Source: Catajapyx aquilonaris (Eukaryota). From it: a stretch of 56,250 bases of DNA. The stretch covers positions 124,001 through 180,250 of the forward strand of contig KZ538013.1 of NCBI GenBank assembly GCA_000934665.2, in the 5' to 3' direction. Both the position numbers and the translations under genes were made by a program. A model generated the notes under the pieces. That model worked only from the letters and a program-made list of their open reading frames with translations. It was not told the origin of the DNA and made no database searches. Each line of letters begins with the position of its first letter. Position 1 is the first letter of the stretch. Positions 12,101 through 38,264 of the stretch are shown in pieces.

Positions 12101-14744
12101 GAGCTTGGACCCTGATGAACCACCAACTGGTTCTGTCCCTGGGGAAGTCACACCTACTGAAGCTACACCTCCTGATCCCACCCCAGATGCTGTTGCAACA
12201 CCACCAGAATCAGTGACTTTGAGAGTCAGTCCAGCCTGATGTATGTAGCAGCCAAGGTGCAGAACATTGGTAGGGGGACGGATTTGGGCCCTGCCAGTTC
12301 CCTGTGCATCCTCAGCCCTTCTCTCACATGCACCCTCTTCTTCAGTCTCCTCCTCCCAGTATAAGGGAAGCAATGTAGGCACCCAGCTCATGGCCCAGCC
12401 TGTCCAGCTCTCACTTTGCACTGCATCAGACTCTTCTGGAAACAGGATTATAAAATTTAGTGTTGGCATTGTCAAACTAACATGCTGCATTCCTGAACTG
12501 ACATGTACATTACACAAAATGACTCACCAGCAACTTCTTGTGAAGTCCCTTCCTGTTCAGGTGATCCATCCCTTGACGCTGTGTCTCTTACCAACTCTTT
12601 AAGATAAAGTGCCAGAGCTAATCGGATCAATCGGATAAGCATAGGCAATTGAAGGTCGGTCAGCGAGAAATCCATTTTGGAGCAACAAACATCTATTCGG
12701 GTCAACCGTGGCCTCTTTGCCAGCAAACTGTGGTAGCATTGGGCTAGGTGGAGACTAAGTGAGCACCGGTATAGCAAAGGTTCCTGATATGCTTCAATCT
12801 TTCCTGATGCACCACGTCGATCCAAACACACTGTCAAATCTGACAATGAAGCCAACTTGCGAAGAGTTAAATCAGGGGCAGTTAGTTCTGAGAAAGCAGG
12901 CTGCCATGATGAGTCAGCTGACACCATGGAGACAGTCTTGACATTGACTGAAAGGACAATGTCCTCCTCCACATACTTCAGGATCAAGTTGTTGCACACA
13001 ATACTTATGTTGCTCACCACCTTGCTGATGAGGCTTTGGATGTAGCCTGGAGGAGCATTCATTTCATAGCTAGAAAATAATCAGAATTGAGAGGAAAGTT
13101 AACATAACAGTACATAAAATGATGTATCGACTGCAATTCAAGTAAATTGTCGTCATTCTGACAAAAGGATGAATTCACCATTTTCCTAATTTTACAGGAG
13201 ACAAAAGATACTTGCAAACCGCTATACAAGTACATAGGATGGCCTTCTTATTTTCCGTTATAACTCTGACGCCACTTGTCCGACGTGTTCCCTGTTTGTC
13301 TGAACGTCACCCAACACTTGAAGGTGCTGGCAGAGGCCATAATCCGATTTTAGCAAAAACGTCGAATTCGTCCTTTTGTCAGATTAACGACGAAAGGAGC
13401 ATCACGTTTCAAAATTTAGCATGCATCCATAATGGTAAAAATGTCACTGACCCTAATTTTCACTTGCTCCTGTCACCTCACTTTCCATTTTGGAACTGAG
13501 ATGCACCCATCTTTAGAAAGTCCATGTAATTGGATTTCCAACAGTATGTTCCACTCAAAATTGAAATCAAGGTCACAGGGGCAAACTTCCAGTATGTGAG
13601 ATTTTTAACAAAGCAGATGTGAGCTACCGGTAACTTATGAAACACCCAGTGTGCATATCATTTTCAAACTGCTACCATTCACTGAACTAACCTGCTTCTT
13701 TTTTTCTTCGCATCTTTTTTGGACTCCCTTTTGTAGCTCCCACCACTGCTACTATCTGAATCACTTTCATCATGTAGCTTTAGTGTACATTCTGCAAAAC
13801 AACAAGTCCAAATACATGAGAATTTTGAACATTATAAGCTAAACAATATGCAACATTTAAAAAAAGTGACCTATGGTGTTTATGGTGACTACAATAGGCT
13901 CCGAAGCCAGCTTGGTCCATGGAACAAGTATCCTGAGTTCATGTATGTGGCCACTCACAAATGTGAATGGCAGATGAAGCTCCTGCTCCAAGACCTCCAG
14001 GCGAAGATCCAAGTTGGAAAATGCAGCCTCACCACCCCATAAAGACACCTGCAAAAATGAAACCATTAAAATTTTGGTATTTGAAGAAACCTGCAAACAA
14101 CTGTACATATACATAGGATGGCCTTTCTATTTTCCGTTATAACTCTGATGTCACTTGTCCCATGGGTTCACTGTTTTGTCAGAATGTGACCCAAACTTTG
14201 ATGATAGTGGAAGAGGCCATAATTCGATTTTATCACAAATGTCGAATTCGTCCTCTTGTCAGATTAACGAGTTACTCGCTCATTGATATTTGGAATTATT
14301 GACAGCTGTCGGACAACTGAAACCTGGATTTCTTACAATAAATTGCATTAATTTTTATATGCAAAGTTTCAGGAACATCTGGTGCCAAATTGTTATTATT
14401 GCTAATTATTGCTAATATGGCTACATTTCTGAAATTGATAGGAGGCTTTCAGGCAGTCATTTTGGGAGCATGTGGGTTTTTCGTAGCTTTCCCTCGTTGC
14501 ACAAGTGAATTTCAAGCTAAGTAGTGTTCCACAGCCACTTTCCTATCCTCCCTACCATGCTCCTTGAATATGCAACAACATGAACCCTCAGGCAGCAAAT
14601 CTTTACAAGCAAGATCCCCTTCAGATAGATACCAAGCTCCCTTCCATCCTCAATCACCTGCGAGTCCTCCGGCCGGAAATTCTTGATGTATTTGTCAACA
14701 TAGCTGAAGAGCAGGGGGGTGACATATGACTCGAGCTTGAACAT
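165..14744 (-). CDS. VPS13B: Vacuolar protein sorting 13B (VPS13B/COH1) lipid-transfer protein, 5' portion; gene continues beyond position 1
   Basis: Chorein-N start MFKLESYVTPLLFSYVDKYIKNFRPEDSQ|VSLWGGEAAFSNLDLRLEVLEQELHLPF...HELRILVPWTKLASEP, plus VPS13B-like blocks YQEPLLYRCS, DNPLGHVFVRPDIY...EVEDRQYQLD and LVCGHSLELN. Frame-consistent GT-AG exons: 14744-14658, 14048-13871, 13791-13692, 13069-12528, 12435-12017, 10836-10371, 10096-9554, 8077-7611, 6565-6216, 5664-5202, 4877-4652, 4322-4100, 3862-3323, 1909-1711, 1564-1269, 406-165. Confidence 0.93.
556..927. mobile_element. Tc1/mariner (Tc2-type) MITE in a VPS13B intron
   Basis: 27-bp TIRs (CCATATTTACGCGCATATAAGACGCAC / GTGCGTCTTATATGTGCGTAAATACGG), TA on both sides (554-555, 928-929), and repeated internal GGTGCGTCTTATA motifs; CCGTA termini are typical of Tc2-like elements. 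Confidence 0.85.
1981..2498. mobile_element. piggyBac-type MITE
   Basis: TTAA at 1977-1980 and 2499-2502; 11-bp TIR CCCTTTGATGG / CCATCAAAGGG. Confidence 0.75.
2684..2794. mobile_element. 111-bp hAT-type MITE
   Basis: 8-bp TSD GTTACACA at 2676-2683 and 2795-2802; TIR CAGGGATGGAAAAAGTACCGCTT / AAGCGGTTCTTTTTCCATCCCTG; internally two related hairpin half-units. Confidence 0.85.
5869..6192. mobile_element. Degenerate Tigger/pogo-like MITE
   Basis: TA-CAGTAGAAC ... GTTCTACTG-TA termini with internal TTATCTGACC repeats. Confidence 0.6.
6752..6825. repeat. 35-bp tandem duplication
   Basis: ATGATACAAATACTGAAGTATTACTTCCACTGCTG present twice in tandem. Confidence 0.9.
8707..8990. mobile_element. 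piggyBac-type MITE
   Basis: TTAA flanks (8703-8706, 8991-8994); 17/18-identical TIR CCCTGGAACCGT(G/A)CCGTG; asymmetric internal repeats GGGGTCTTTTTGGACCCC / GGGGTCCGAAAAGACCCC, as in piggyBac ends. Confidence 0.85.
11569..11713. mobile_element. PIF/Harbinger-like MITE, same family as 20762-20904
   Basis: Imperfect TIR GGCCACATTCACATG / CATGTAAATGTGCC; shares GCGATGAA..CAATTGTTT and CGCTCACATGTAAA with the element at 20762. Confidence 0.55.
11719..11914. mobile_element. PIF/Harbinger-like MITE
   Basis: About 40-bp imperfect TIRs GCCTGTTTCACTAACTC...GCGGGGCATGTGG / CCACAAGCCCCAC...GAGTTGGTGAAACAGGC; abuts the previous element. Confidence 0.65.
13148..13393. mobile_element. MITE with about 28-bp TIRs; partial second copy at 14110-14270
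   Basis: TCGTCATTCTGACAAAAGGATGAATTC is inverted relative to GAATTCGTCCTTTTGTCAGATTAACGA; 13231-13390 aligns by eye with 14110-14270. Confidence 0.7.
14110..14270. repeat. Truncated second copy of the 13148-13393 element
   Basis: Shared TACATAGGATGGCCTT...TTTTCCGTTATAACTCTGA...GTCGAATTCGTCCT.TTGTCAGATTAACGA. Confidence 0.75.
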
Positions 14745-16130
14745 GTCTTGGCTGGCAGCCTCCCTTCCAGTGGGACGAGGCTCATCAAGCTACGTGGACG
14801 TTTCCTCCAGCCGCGTACCCCCCACCCTGCAGCATCAAAGCCATCCTGAGGAGCCTGTTGTACTGCGTGTGTACCGGCGTGTCATTGCCCACCAGCACCG
14901 CCACTGGCCTGCCAGTCAGTTGCAACAGGTGTAGGTCCCCATGCCTAGGCCAGGGCACTGCAGACGGTCCGAGCCCGGGTGGTGGTACACGTACCAAACA
15001 GGCGGTACGTCACCAGCACGGGCCGATCGGCCGCCGAAGCAGACAGGAAAAAGCACGATAAAAAGGAACCACGGAATGTTGCGGTGGCTGCCAACTACTG
15101 GGATCGTCATCAGCTGATATTGCCACGCTCCAACTCGAATGGCTTCTCTCCGGGTACATACCGCGCCACCTTCAACATGCAGTCAACCTACATCTACATT
15201 CATTAAAAGGTGATCTTCTTTGCACCAAAATGTAGTGTGGGAATACATGCCACATGTCCTGTACGCATAAATGTGACAATAATACAATCAAGCCATAACT
15301 TAGCAACTGTTGAGAGACCCAGGACAGCTGATTTTTTTCTTGGAATTTAGCAAAATTTTAACGTCATTCCCTGCAAACAAATGGTAAGGCTTCAGATATA
15401 ATCTCAAGCATGGAGTTATAACATCCATATTCTAGAAAAACGATGCTAACCTATTTTGCAATTCAAACTACGATGTCCAACTAAAGCACAATATGGCTTT
15501 GTACAAGAAGTCGTATGAAGCAGCTTGGGATCAAATTTCTAGTTGACTTTGTGTGTTTTGGCTTCTTGTAATTTAACCAATCGGTCATACAAGGGGCTAT
15601 TCATCATCTATACTGTACCAGTGTATCCCCATGTCTGGGTCCAATGCCATTATGGCAGTTGGGCCTCATTAAGTCAGGAAGGTGTCCTATCATAATATGT
15701 TCAGGCTCTCCTACGAGTCCTACTACCACTCTGATGTCAACCAAATGGTGAATGGAGTGTGTTCAAAGTTCCTGGGTCTTTTTGTATTCTCAAATTTCAC
15801 CTAATATTGTTGTTATTTTTTGTGTCCACCTGGATCGGGATGCAACAAGCTATACTCAGATAACTTCAGGCAAAATTTGAAATGACTAAAAGGACCCAAG
15901 TACTTGTAATAATTCAGTGTAAATATGACTTCTTGGAGATAGTAGCATTTGCTCCAGAACTTAACAACAGTGATTGCAATAGGGATTATTGGTCCTGTTT
16001 CACCTAACTGAATATTGTAAGGCAGATCTGTTCTTTGCTAACTTTTGTGATTTTATTCAGAATTTGAATATGTGAATTTTAACAAAAGTTTCTTGCAATC
16101 CTCTTGACATGATACAAACCTGCAGAAGCT

Positions 16131-17372
16131 ATGGCGTCTATGTCAGAAGTTGTGGCAGCCATGACAGCCAGTGCGGACGCCATGAGGGCAAGCGCACAAA
16201 TCATTAACACTGTAACAGCTAAAGAAGCTATAAACATGGGCATCCAGGCCATGCAAGCAGGCATAGAAGCATTGAGTGGGTCACCACGCCAAGTCATGAA
16301 GGCAGGTGCAATTGCTATGCGAGCAGGTGAAGTGGCCATGAGAGCAGGTGCAGAGAACATGAGTGATATAGCTGCAGAATCCATTAGGGCAGGTGCAGAA
16401 GCTATGAGGGCTAGTGCTGAGATCATGAGAACAGGAGCAGAAGAAATGTGTGCGTCATCTGCAGACCAAACAAAAGATCCTGAGATCAAGACAGCCGCTA
16501 TAGAGGTCATGAAGGCTGGCGCTGAGGCCATGAGGGCAGGCGCTGAGGCCATGCAAGCAGGTGCAGGGAATATGAGTGGGACAAATGCAGAAGCCATGAA
16601 GGTAGGTGCTGATGCCATTAAGTTAGCGGCAGAGGCAATGCGAGAGTGTGCAGAATACGTGAGTGCAACATCTGCAGTTGAGGTGCCAAGAACAGATGGG
16701 GGCATAATGCACACTGTAAGGTCAGGCACTGCAACTGTGAGATCGTACGTGCAGGATATCAGTGGGAAAGCAGTCGAAGCTGTGAGAACCGGAGCAGAAG
16801 TCATACGATCAGGTGCATCATGTGCAAAAGCAAAAGCTGAAAGCCTAGCAGCAACAACCACCCAAGCAGTTAGAACAGGTGCTGAAACCATCAGGACAAC
16901 AGCAGAAACCTCTAGGGCCAGAGCTGGAAACTTGGGTGAAGCAACCGCTCAGGCTGTGAGGACGGGAGCTGAAGCTATCAGGACAAGAGCAGAAACCACT
17001 AGGGAAAGAGCTGAAAGCTTGGGTGCATCAACAACTCAAGCTGTGAGGACAGGAGCTCAAGCCATAAGAGCAGGTGCTGAAACTGCAAAAGCAAAAGCTG
17101 AAAGTCTGCGAGCAACAACTAGCCAAGCAGCAAGGACAGGTGCTGAAGCCATAAGGAGAGGTGCAGAAACCACTCGAGAAGCAGCTGAGCGCTTGGGTTC
17201 AACAACAGTCCAAGCTGTGAGAACAGGCACTGACACCATGAGAGAAGGTGTAAATGTTATGAGAACCGGAGCAGGGAACTTAGGTCGGAAAACCGTGGAA
17301 GCTGTGCGGGCAGGAGCCGAGGCCATGAGGACAGGTGCAGAAGCTATGGCAGCTGGCATGCAGATAACTTGA
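16131..17372 (+). CDS. Uncharacterised 413-aa Ala/Met/Thr-rich protein made of 29-aa helical repeats (LEA/apolipoprotein/coiled-coil-like architecture)
   Basis: Uninterrupted 1242-nt ORF in AT-rich flanks; start context GCTATGG with an in-frame TGA upstream; exact 87-nt periodicity (units at 16836, 16923, 17010, 17097, 17184, 17271) with conserved residues encoded by different codons; possible upstream acceptor TTTTATTCAG at about 16060 and ATTAAA at about 17459. Confidence 0.8.
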   Translation: MASMSEVVAAMTASADAMRASAQIINTVTAKEAINMGIQAMQAGIEALSGSPRQVMKAGAIAMRAGEVAMRAGAENMSDIAAESIRAGAEAMRASAEIMRTGAEEMCASSADQTKDPEIKTAAIEVMKAGAEAMRAGAEAMQAGAGNMSGTNAEAMKVGADAIKLAAEAMRECAEYVSATSAVEVPRTDGGIMHTVRSGTATVRSYVQDISGKAVEAVRTGAEVIRSGASCAKAKAESLAATTTQAVRTGAETIRTTAETSRARAGNLGEATAQAVRTGAEAIRTRAETTRERAESLGASTTQAVRTGAQAIRAGAETAKAKAESLRATTSQAARTGAEAIRRGAETTREAAERLGSTTVQAVRTGTDTMREGVNVMRTGAGNLGRKTVEAVRAGAEAMRTGAEAMAAGMQIT

Positions 17373-18005
17373 TGGAAACGAAGATTTTATGATCCACATC
17401 AGACAAATTAACAATTTATTCATTACTGAATATGATGAAATTATCAATGGATGGAAAAATTAAACATTGGTCAAAAAGCTTGATTCCAATTTTTTGTCAT
17501 ACCTAGAGCTAAAATAAGTTTCACTAATTGTAAGCTACAAGTAGGACAGGGCCTGCGTAAAGATGGTGGCACCCCTTCAAGCATGCTCCTAGTAAAATCA
17601 TGTAGCTCTTTGCTCTTGTGAACATGAGAAAAATGCTGCCTAAGGTGGAGAAATTCACTGTTTGGGATGCCACCTTGGATGTGTACCATACCTGACAGCC
17701 ACATGATTACAATGTTTCATTTAGCCACACAGGCATAATTGGGCACCTGAATCAGGGCACAACACAGAAGTTACACAAAAATTACTTCAAGCAATACTAG
17801 CAATAACCAAATATACCCTGAAACTTGGAACACCCTACATTGAAGCACTTGCTGTATGACTCATACTTCACCTATTGTCCTGAAAGTATGATTATGAATT
17901 TATGATTACCATGTAAGTCAGCAACAGTCACTTGCAAGTGGCATCCCAAGCTGCACAAGCCAGGATGAAGGAAAGACTAGGTCTGGTTTGGCCTAAATTA
18001 CTTGG

Positions 18006-18449
18006 AATAACGTACGGAAAACGCGAGAACGTTCTGACGTCATCGTTTCTTCCACTGTTGCTTTTTGGGATAGAGTTGGCCTTACTGGCGTGCGGGAGGT
18101 GGGAGGCAGTAGTCGGTGGGGGCAGGGGGCTGTGGCGCAAAGGCAAGGATCAAGGATAGGCGTGTATCCGCTGAAGATAGGTCTGTATCAACAAGGAAGG
18201 AAGGTTAGGCTTGGTTAGGTTGGTACAGCATATCCCTTCCAAAATCCAAAAAAAATCAATCCTTGCATCCTTGCCTTTGCGACACAGACAAGCTGCCCCC
18301 AGCCACCACTCACCCTGCCGCCTCCGGCACGAGAAAAAGGCCTACTCTTCCCGCTTTTTGTTGACACGGTTTACTCATATTGTTCTGTGAGGGTATTTCC
18401 ATGGAAACCTTGATGACATTAGATCATTCTCTCATTTTCCACACATTAT
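18006..18449. mobile_element. Foldback/MITE-like element with long diverged inverted arms
   Basis: AATAACGTACGGAAAACGCGAGAACGTTCTGACGTCATC pairs with GATGACATTAGATCATTCTCTCATTTTCCACACATTATT; inner arms GCGCAAAGGCAAGGATCAAGGAT / ATCCTTGCATCCTTGCCTTTGCG; central GGTTAGGCTTGGTTAGGTTGG. Confidence 0.7.
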
Positions 18450-18535: not shown

Positions 18536-18541
18536 TTTATT
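18536..18541 (-). terminator. Probable poly(A) signal of RPB2
   Basis: AATAAA on the minus strand about 65 nt after the RPB2 stop codon. Confidence 0.55.
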
Positions 18542-18605
18542 ACTCGTTTAATGTCAGATACTTCTAACAAATACACCGGTTTTCAGTCTTGGTCTTCAAT
18601 AACTC

Positions 18606-27833
<9,228 letters not shown>

Positions 27834-29291: not shown

Positions 29292-32200
29292 TCAAGGCGT
29301 CAGCTGCTGGTCCTGCTGCGATTGTTGCGAAGATTGCTGTCCTTCCGATTGCTTCTCTTCCTCATCCTGGCCGATGGTGCCGAAGTACCTCTGGATCTCC
29401 TCCAGAGTCTTTCCCTTGGTCTCAGGAACAAACATGAGCACAAAGAAGATACCCGCGAAGCAAATGCCTCCAAATATTATGAAGGGAGGTCCCGTATGTA
29501 GCGCCTTGTCGATGCCAGGATAAGCCATGGTGACGGCAAAGGCCAGTGTCCAGTTGAAGGAGGTTGCAATGGACGAAGCCAAGCTCCTGACACTTCCAGG
29601 GAACACCTCGCCCATCATCATCCAGGGGATGGGACCGTACCCGATGGAGAACATTGCGATGAAGAGGACCAGGGAGACGACGGGGAGCCACCACAGTGTG
29701 TCATTCGCCAAATCTGGATTGCGCTGAAAAAATTACATAAAACAAATACTTTAAGACATGTGCGCTGCGCCATTATTTTAAAAACAATTTTGTAAACAAA
29801 CTGCGCATAATTATGCTACTCATCATGCCCTACTATTATTCAATTTCATGTGACTACTAAGCGAGGATATGAAATAAGCGGCCCCATGCAAATGAGGTTA
29901 TTATGAAGTTGACACTGCTCAATAAGTTTATGGAGCTAACATACCTCCTGGATGATGAAGAATGTCCCCAGACTGACGAGTGACACTCCCATGAAGAGAT
30001 CTGACAGCACCAGCAGCACTCGCCTTCCAACAATATCCATGATCAGTGACGCAATGCCTGTGACAACCACCTGCACTCCGGTGACAATGATGGCCTGCAC
30101 AGTCGATGACATCTGTTTGAGTCCAGCAGCCCCAAAGATCTGTGACGTGTAAAAGATGACCGCGTTGACACCCGACAGCTGCTGCAGCAGCATGAGACCC
30201 ATGGAAACAATGAATGGTCGGAGGTTTTGTGGTAGCAGCAGGTCTCTCATGGTGGCAGAATTGGCCATGCTTTCCTCCAGTGCATCCTTGATCACCTGGA
30301 CCTCTGCTCCAACGTCGACCCCTTTCTCTCGAAGCCATAGAAGCGACTCTTTCGCCTTCTGGTCCTCGCCCTTCTTCAGGTAATAGGCGGGTGACTCAGG
30401 CATCGGCAGCATTATAACTATCAACGCCTGCAAGAAAAACCATCAGGTTATAACCCTCTTTATCACCACCATCTAAATACGAATAAAAATGTGTACTGAC
30501 CACCGGCATGGCGAAACAGGTCCAGTTCAGTACATCCCAATTTTCCGCAATGCCCAGAATATTGACCAAGAGTATTCCAATGGTAATAAGCAATTGGAAT
30601 CCGGCTCCTACCATTCCTCTAACCTGGGCCGAAGCACACTCTCCAATATAGATAGGAATGGCCAGCGAATAGATCCCGCTGGACAGTCCGGTGATTATCC
30701 TGCCAGCGATCAACATTGCCACATTCTGAGCAAAGATGATCAGCAGCCAGCCAAGGATGCATGGGATCGAGATGATTTTGATCATTCCCTTTCGGCCAAA
30801 CCGTCCTATTAGACCACCTCCAATCAGGCCTCCAATCAAGGCACCCACATTCATCAAGGAGCTGACCAGGCTGAATTCTACGTCTGAAACTTTGATAGTT
30901 GTGTCTTCCCTGAGAAGCCTTTGAGCAGGAGAGGACCATCCTAGGGTGGTGCCCATAACCAGAGCGCCCATGGTTGCTTTAAAAAAAAGTTCAGTAGATT
31001 AGTCACATGTTGAAAAATAGGCACAGTATATGTACTGTACGATATGTGTGTACATGCAGTATGTGTACAAAGCCGAGAGAAAAACGAGCAAATGCACAAT
31101 AATATTGTGTCCGGTCCGGTTTCCTTTCGCGTCAATACAAGAGTTTTTCAACCTTCCGGTGTGGCCTTTTCCTGTTTCGCAGGGAAATGCGACATAAGCA
31201 GGAAATAACGCAAATCCTCTTGTTCGGAAATGGTGCCAAGGAAAGTCCGAAATATTGCGTAACAGGAGCCATGGAATAAAAAGTGCATCTAATTTCATGG
31301 TGACAATGGGATTATTACGTTACATCTACGTAGCGGACAGCATGAGCTCGTTTAACAATAAATGCTCGGTAACAGACAAGGTCTTATAGTATCAAATTAT
31401 ATTTCATTTGTTATAGAAAAAGTTGGGAGAGATACCGGTACGTCATTTCACATGCACGCTCTTTCCAAAACTCATCGTCTTTAAATGAGACATATTTCTT
31501 TCTAGCAGGGACATAAAATGAAAAGATTCCTCTCAAGTTCTATAGCTTGTCGCTGTGCACCATAATTTACCGTGCAGATTGTACTATACCTATCATCATC
31601 AGAAGCAAAATTGAAACAACTTTTCTCCTATCGAATTTGGGAGTTGTGAATATCAGGGTTTGACATTCACAAATGTCTTATTTTTCCATTTTCAACTGGC
31701 CACAGGAAGAAAGTGGAAGGTGCACGAATTTTTATATCAATTTTTACACCAGTGAGATAAAAATTCCCAATTTTCTAATCAAGCATTATAATGTGTGAAA
31801 ACTATAACATTTAATGAAATCGACGCTGAGAAAAAGGCAAGAAAAAGGTCATTGTGGCAACTTCAATGTTACTGTTCGCACACGAATTCATTGACCTACA
31901 AGTTTTAGTGAATAATAATATAATATGTACGGTAACTAAAATATTGGGCGGGATCTACCATTACACTGTAAAAACTGCAATAGGTCTACAAATTTCTGAC
32001 CATCCACTTTCCTGCTGGGGCCATTTGAACGTTGGAAAACTGCAAATTCTTCCACTTCTAACTCTGCTTTCACAACTCTCAAACCTGACAGGAAAACACC
32101 GATGTTGTTAATTAATAATTATTGCATTCTCCGCTAAAAATTACACAGCAAAAAAATCGATCCAGCAGGCAATGATCCTTTTCACATAACTCAGGCACAT

Positions 32201-38055: not shown

Positions 38056-38264
38056 GTGAGGGTGTGGTCTGTGGAGCCTGTGCAGTAATCACTCCAACTC
38101 TGGCAGTAGAAGATGGGCCTCCTCGTGAGGGTGTGGTCTGTGGAGCCTGTGCAGTAATCACTCCAACTCTGGCAGTAGAAGATGGGCCTCCTCGTGAGGG
38201 TGTGGTCTGTGGAGCCTGTGCAGTAATCACTCCAACTCTGGCAGTAGATGGGGCTCCTCGTGAG
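38056..38264. repeat. 69-bp minisatellite, 3 copies
   Basis: Units start at 38056, 38125 and 38194; the third copy is 3 nt shorter. Confidence 0.92.

Follow-up and report, generated by a model that had tools for sequence, protein, structure and literature searches.

A selected protein built from a 29-residue helical repeat beside VPS13B in an arthropod genome, and its possible action on lipid surfaces

The window (the whole 56,250-nucleotide stretch of DNA that was analyzed) carries a single-exon coding frame whose product we call P0001 (Table 1). It lies head-to-head with a VPS13B gene and tail-to-tail with a gene that we take from its translation to be RPB2. The frame translates without an internal stop, as the initial annotation had it, and an in-frame stop codon lies seven codons upstream of its ATG. 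The gene had also been called intronless; this is correct for the coding frame but may not hold beyond it, since a candidate splice acceptor at 16060 suggests an intron in the 5′-UTR. With a matrix trained on 12 acceptors from neighboring genes, this site ranks 38th among 3299 plus-strand AG sites, and the chance of finding one as good within 100 nt of a random position is 5%. Two candidate donors lie further upstream, and a non-coding exon may thus precede the coding exon. The presumed leader holds two upstream ATGs, one of them in fair context, which count against efficient translation. An open frame of 270 codons runs antisense over the gene (16079-16891, minus strand) and is most likely a shadow of the codon use of the repeat.

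Table 1. Features of the P0001 gene and its immediate neighbors (positions in the window)
Feature	Position	Strand	Remarks
VPS13B first coding exon, head-to-head neighbor	14655..14744	-	first codon 14744
Candidate shared VPS13B/P0001 promoter	14800-15400		suggested by a GC- and CpG-richer stretch
Candidate donors for an upstream exon	15210 and 15384	+	both in top 3-4%
Candidate branch point, pyrimidine tract and splice acceptor	16037..16060	+	70 nt upstream of ATG; motif-based
Coding frame of P0001, single-exon	16131..17372	+	413 aa, 42 kDa, stop-free translation
N-half, Met/Ala-rich 29-residue units (residues 16, 45, 74, 116, 145)	16176..16649	+	acidic
Linker of low predicted order (residues 174-206)	16650..16748	+	pLDDT <50 at 176-198
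C-half rod, seven in-register 29-residue units	16749..17357	+	Thr/Ala/Arg-rich, basic
Candidate polyadenylation signal ATTAAA	17459..17464	+	motif only
RPB2 last exon and AATAAA, tail-to-tail neighbor	18541..18695	-	named from translation

It is plausible that the P0001 gene was born by divergent transcription from the VPS13B promoter. The gene is flanked by two MITE remnants (15827-15909 and 17736-17836), which are same-orientation halves of one roughly 230-bp palindromic family; they form no capsule around it, and its flanks share just a 12-nt inverted match (E 0.15). A transposon-borne frame was rejected, as no second copy of the coding DNA appeared among the 40 candidates scored of 115 and no inverted repeats enclose it. 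Several other features of the window deserve mention. A MITE-like palindromic element of roughly 290 bp lies at 18065-18355; of 1045 candidates 40 were scored and every one matched, the other 39 at 82-90% identity. In the VPS13B introns an inverted-end element of roughly 190-240 bp occurs twice (13149-13391 and 14084-14270; 83-84% identity), and an RPB2 intron at about 20295 (minus strand) appears to begin with GC rather than GT. Exons at 29292-30971 (minus strand) belong, judging from their translation, to what is presumably a sugar-transporter-like gene, and three near-identical 69-bp tandem units (97% matches) lie at 38056-38264.

The P0001 gene is single-copy in its host: the whole protein and two 58-residue pieces of it match this locus alone in the genome, and the coding DNA is single-copy among the 40 scored of 115 candidates. 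The host is an arthropod, probably on the hexapod side, judging from a tree of one VPS13B exon (49 rows, drawn from proteins of 294-2000 residues) that places it beside insect rows (95/89). That exon is at most 62% identical to any protein found. The orphan status that had been ascribed to P0001 is therefore weak, because at VPS13B the host shares only about 60% identity with its nearest relatives in the database, and in a host without a close database relative a fast-evolving repeat gene would look like an orphan at any age.

The repeat architecture is as first described. Six units start exactly 87 nt apart (16836, 16923, 17010, 17097, 17184 and 17271), a degenerate seventh precedes them at 16749, and Tandem Repeats Finder (TRF) returns a period of 87. 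The three Met-rich units quoted from the N-terminal half were found at residues 45, 74 and 145, and there is an additional one at residue 116 and a weak one at residue 16. In the C-half, identity autocorrelation reaches 0.52 at lag 29 (maximum of 300 shuffles, 0.22); in the N-half it is 0.25 against a shuffle limit of 0.24, and there lag 7 dominates (0.32). The 29-residue unit may have arisen when a heptad of the form A-E-A-M/I-R-x-G was expanded. The described composition holds as well, with no Trp, no Phe and three Pro, and Ala, Thr and Gly make up 24%, 11% and 9% of the residues. The claim that there is no obvious signal peptide stands, the best 19-residue Kyte-Doolittle mean being 1.05, and the hydropathy profile shows neither a signal nor a membrane segment. 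GRAVY is -0.19 for the whole protein and +0.05 for the N-half; residues 1-175 have a pI of 4.8, and the rod has a net charge of +9.

It had been argued, from codons that vary beneath conserved residues, that selection acts on the protein, and the substitution counts agree, with dN/dS among units of 0.24-0.61 depending on the method. Pooled pairwise values are 0.24 for units C1-C4, 0.35 for C1-C6 and 0.41 for all 12 units, versus 0.64-1.79 when the units are read in shifted frames. A stricter count that takes distinct changes only (34 synonymous and 45 non-synonymous) gives 0.61 (p = 0.02), and the third-position excess of changes per column, taken alone, is not significant (p = 0.10). The units have diverged to a dS near 1, yet the 413 codons contain no stop or frameshift. 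P0001 has thus been under selection as a protein. In simulations of neutral decay by substitutions only, a frame of this length stays stop-free in 18% of runs at 5% divergence, 3.8% at 10% and 0.05% at 25%; selection therefore lasted until recently, though the gene might be a very young pseudogene. That a once-functional gene has gone silent or is decaying, or that the frame is not translated at all, seems quite improbable to us. The upstream ATGs, the lack of an orthologue for comparison and the survival at 5% divergence would suit such a history, but the intact frame in spite of the divergence among units, the low survival at 10% and 25%, and the candidate acceptor and polyadenylation signal speak against it.

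An undistorted straight helix has 3.63 residues per turn (PMC8016460, PMC4786415), and 29 residues over eight turns give 3.625. Any repeat of 29 residues must produce a spectral peak at this value, as peaks can fall at 29/k only, and so the peak does not by itself show that the helix is unbroken. For residues 207-409 the hydrophobic moment is 0.285 at 29/8, 0.127 at 11/3 and 0.019 at 7/2. On a 29/8 wheel the apolar face comprises A1, L4, T8, A11, V12, G15, A16, I19, G22, A23 and M/T26, with Arg at 13, 20 and 27 along one edge and Glu/Gln at 10, 17 and 24 pointing away from it. This broad face consists of small residues, with Ala at unit positions 1, 11, 16 and 23, large hydrophobes at just 3-4 of the 29 positions, and in its middle a Gly (position 15) that is kept in 11 of 11 units. 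Basic residues lie mostly on one flank (22 of 31 in the rod, 13 of 13 in four N-units), and Lys/Arg at position 29 in four of the seven rod units makes a second basic flank. The rod has 35 possible salt bridges at i,i+3/4 spacing where 13 are expected, prefers Arg to Lys (25:6) and Glu to Asp (20:2), and has a very low mean hydrophobicity (0.04-0.08).

AlphaFold2 run on P0001 without an alignment (mean pLDDT 63.7) gave one helix over residues 191-412 and six N-terminal helices of 20-32 residues each. Given nine aligned two-unit pieces, it returned a best model with a single helix through the unit junction (pLDDT 85), and the remaining four scored 63-69. The long, unsupercoiled amphipathic helix of the initial annotation therefore agrees with the 29/8 moment and the models of the C-half, which is predicted to be one continuous amphipathic helix, about 30 nm long if straight, but not with those of the N-half, which is predicted as separate helices and no straight rod. 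The Met/Ala-rich units, predicted as helices of 25-30 residues, are modeled at low confidence as a four-helix bundle; residues 48-185 pack like a generic one in a model with a pLDDT of about 60. Segmentation of the rod helix at the unit junctions is possible, where Leu-Gly is followed by Thr-x-x-Gln, which presumably resembles a helix cap (as may Pro52 in one N-unit). A Foldseek search with the P0001 model found no match at E 0.001 or better, and the highest VIA-align Z (14.9) was to generic and designed four-helix bundles, a level common for helical models.

The period of 29 had been set apart from the 11-mer class of repeats, and this distinction was not supported. P0001 was rejected as an 11-mer (3-11 helix) repeat on its period and on the lower moment at 11/3; its core spacing is nonetheless 3-4-4-3-4-3-4-4, or 11+7+11, and tails within one bacterial family (below) have best periods of 11, 22 or 29. 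The hydrophobic spacing can equally be written 8-7-7-7, four heptads plus a skip, and the segmented coiled coil of SF-assemblin also uses 29 residues (PMC2119799).

The suggestion that P0001 belongs to an unrecognized family was borne out, in that Pfam, protein, PDB and contig searches returned no homolog. Searching 8000 candidates of similar length with the full protein found none, and from 8000 longer candidates a two-unit profile picked out two heptad stalks and nothing else at E up to 0.1. There was no match among PDB sequences, no usable match in the Atlas for either the whole protein or the C-half, and no relative in phage records; none of 412, 49 and 595 pattern matches in prokaryote, viral and metagenome contigs, respectively, was confirmed, and the exact sequence is not in the protein collection searched. 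Among 1.84 billion representative proteins, 36 matched at E 0.001 or better and two at 1e-10 or better. Together with one match from the two-unit profile these make 37 weak matches, which were ruled out as kin because the best lag is a multiple of 7 in 36 of them. All are arrays, of mucin-like, fluke, phage-tail-like and xxxLxxG type, and the two best are a zonadhesin repeat from a fish and a fluke sequence of perfect 7-mers. A reversed P0001 query loses them (at most 8 bits), so that they reflect a common directional heptad pattern and not composition alone. The 59 bits that P0001 scores against the phrog_17134 profile are not specific, as the zonadhesin repeat scores the same, and the TIGR03057 (xxxLxxG) profile does not match P0001 to E 10 though the controls P0010 and P0020 score 107 and 130 bits. 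Phage-tail-like stalks (phrog_17134, phrog_23208) and TIGR03057 share with P0001 a directional heptad with Ala, Glu, Arg and Gly, but these stalks and the xxxLxxG repeats have a pure period of 7.

The sole period-29 case among the 37 is P0033, a bacterial PRC-barrel protein whose tail has the same period and register as P0001 and a similar wheel. Their alignment (phmmer E 5.8e-4; 26% identity across 134 residues) has no gaps and keeps the 29-residue register throughout, and it is better than column permutations that keep the helical angle (p 0.0003-0.004). If the likeness meant homology, the repeat would have come from such bacterial tails by horizontal transfer, for which we see a very slim chance, since P0033 was singled out as the strongest case among 1.84 billion proteins and P0001 has no PRC barrel. 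The relatives of P0033 also tell against transfer. Its nearest relative retrieved 28 loci from 201 genomes, and of the 14 examined (L018-L031) three have a best tail period of 22, three of 11 and two of 29, and six have another or none; the closest has a period of 22, and against the rod none of the 14 exceeds 20 bits. The one other tail with a clear period of 29 prefers the reversed rod (18 versus 11 bits), and a direct search of the 201 genomes of the phylum gave five weak places that are heptad-like or broken by stops. These tails differ from P0001 in being prokaryotic, Lys/Glu-rich and joined to a PRC-barrel head, with a period that is not kept among relatives. Convergence is the better reading of the likeness, and the bacterial family suggests that periods of 11, 22 and 29 are interchangeable for amphipathic tails. 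The P0033 tail also has a weak score, under the cut-off, against a phasin profile, which counts in favor of the lipid-coat reading given below. These Armatimonadota-type PRC-barrel proteins, with their variable amphipathic tails, form a natural series for helix periodicity.

Our tentative interpretation, which we hold with less than even confidence, is that P0001 is a single-copy, lineage-restricted intracellular protein that coats lipid surfaces by means of its helix. We give it most weight because the values of the rod and its one-sided basic edge match descriptions of the perilipin-4 helix. For moment, hydrophobic fraction, aromatics and charged residues the rod has 0.27-0.30, 0.36-0.38, 0 and 0.26, which fall among the values tabulated in PMC5889406 for Plin4 (0.257, 0.35, 0.002, 0.15), Plin3 (0.35, 0.37, 0.01, 0.23) and alpha-synuclein (0.30, 0.47, 0.02, 0.24). 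Plin4 is there described as Thr-, Gly- and Val-rich and nearly free of aromatics, with its basic residues on one side, and as needing more than 66 residues for droplet targeting (PMC5889406, PMC8064757); the P0001 rod has 203. The rod is such a long, low-moment, aromatic-free helix with one-sided basic residues. The perilipin-4 giant helix (PMC5889406, PMC8064757) is likewise a long repeat helix without indels, rich in Thr, Gly, Ala and Val, net positive, and joined to a helix bundle; it differs in having 33-residue (3 x 11) repeats over about 970 residues, where P0001 has a period of 29 over about 200. P0001, chemically like the perilipin-4 and synuclein helices, also differs in using Arg/Glu in place of Lys/Asp and in that its bundle is predicted at the N-end.

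As a lipid coat, P0001 would act in the manner of the very long, weakly amphipathic helices found in perilipin-4, synuclein and exchangeable apolipoproteins. Its basic C-half would be largely unfolded in water and would become a straight helix of about 200 residues on meeting a neutral-lipid droplet or an anionic membrane. It would rest flat on the surface, attached by numerous weak contacts through Ala, Thr, Val, Ile and Leu, and pack laterally with its neighbors through the one-sided Arg edge and the Glu back; the Met-rich N-half, a loose helix bundle, might open on the same surface. The expression, disorder, lipid binding and location of P0001 are inferences, and several observations weigh against the coat. 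Its preference for Arg and Glu is the reverse of that of Plin4, in which Lys-to-Arg changes almost abolished droplet targeting (PMC8064757). The invariant Gly15 fits close helix-helix packing at least as well, the excess of salt bridges favors a helix that is stable without lipid, and the mean hydrophobicity is very low. Furthermore, most same-heptad matches are phage-fibre-like stalks, the presumed leader holds two upstream ATGs, and the genome already has two ordinary perilipin genes. The latter, found with the PF03036 profile, lie in tandem on the minus strand of another contig (C388:17420-21057, L014-L016) and are clearly similar to each other. P0001 was rejected as a perilipin, as it has no PF03036 match to E 10 and the profile finds nothing at the locus. 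Perilipins have a four-helix bundle at the C-terminus; in P0001 one is predicted at the N-end alone, in a model with a pLDDT of about 60, and it matches TIP47 with a Z of 11.2, no better than many unrelated bundles.

The reading that competes most directly, possible but on balance unlikely, is that the same helix assembles with others into a small-core, non-supercoiled coiled coil or bundle and so forms a thin fibre or spacer inside the cell, that of sperm or of the cytoskeleton, for instance. The core would have Ala at a, Ile/Met/Leu at d and Gly beside it, and at a period so near that of the undistorted helix (PMC8016460, PMC4786415) the bundle would be straight. The invariant Gly15, the four Ala positions, the many intrahelical salt bridges, the stalk-like heptad and the best two-unit model all suit it, and Ala-rich cores make tight bundles in honeybee silk (PMC12284834). 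However, in units C1-C4 only three of eight core positions have large hydrophobes, some units have Arg at flank positions 5, 22 and 29, the other four two-unit models score poorly, and P0001 has no globular anchor or head domain. The precedent is the filaments of SF-assemblin and beta-giardin, which consist of a segmented coiled coil whose 29-residue repeat, four heptads with one residue added, makes a long helical rod (PMC2119799). P0001 was nonetheless rejected as a member of that family, as it has no sequence match to it and no Pro-rich head; its acids are spread over positions 2, 10, 17 and 24 rather than clustered at the unit end, and it has a small-residue face. SF-assemblin forms protist microtubule fibres, and P0001 is an arthropod orphan.

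We consider it improbable that P0001 is an LEA- or CAHS-like stress protectant, disordered when hydrated and helical on drying or freezing, that shields membranes and proteins. Its small-residue, aromatic-free composition is of the right kind, and in LEA proteins of invertebrates there are long stretches, predicted to form amphipathic helices, that protect liposomes (PMC6164224). Like P0001, both group 3 LEA proteins and the coiled-coil silks of insects are Ala-rich, repeat-built and helical when folded. Group 3 LEA proteins are strongly hydrophilic and LEA-type protectants usually occur as families, but P0001 is single-copy and only mildly hydrophilic, less so than group 3 LEA. Its GRAVY, the absence of any LEA family among Pfam matches to E 10 and the lack of an 11-mer motif led us to reject it as a group 3 LEA protein. 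Coiled-coil insect silks carry a signal peptide, and type I antifreeze proteins have Thr spaced 11 residues apart. The Ala content, a host on the hexapod side and the Thr spacings of 11, 11 and 7 along one rod flank could also indicate a secreted silk, glue or helical antifreeze whose signal is encoded in a distant exon. This seems very improbable: 81 pairings of donor and acceptor between 14760 and the frame were tried without gaining a convincing signal peptide (best 8-residue hydropathy 2.45), a stop codon lies in frame before the ATG, and the moment at 7/2 is very small. P0001 shares an Ala-rich helical core with insect silk (PMC12284834), and was rejected as one for want of continuous 7/2 heptads, a signal peptide and a paralogue set.

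No description of P0001 or of a lipid-coating helix with a period of 29 was found in the mostly open-access literature covered. Within it, P0001 works like a known kind of protein, the long repeat-built amphipathic helix, in a period and chemistry that are new for animals. More doubtful is the larger idea that it is a second kind of animal lipid coat, in which a heptad microrepeat beside the VPS13B promoter grew into an untwisted 29/8 giant helix of Arg/Glu type, joined to a Met-rich bundle. Such a protein would have arrived at the design of perilipins and apolipoproteins by convergence, without common ancestry or the 11-mer period. The weight of any such conclusion is limited to one gene in one genome, with no relatives found. 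If P0001 is a lipid coat, it would be a natural test of what droplet binding demands of a helix: it may be enough to be long, rich in small residues and charged on one side, or the 3-11 period and Lys/Asp preference seen in perilipin-4 may be indispensable. If it is a fibre, it would be a straight 29/8 bundle with a core of Ala and Gly, of a kind rarely seen in animals, and of use for coiled-coil theory and design. On either reading, it shows how a repeat of seven residues can grow into a selected protein.
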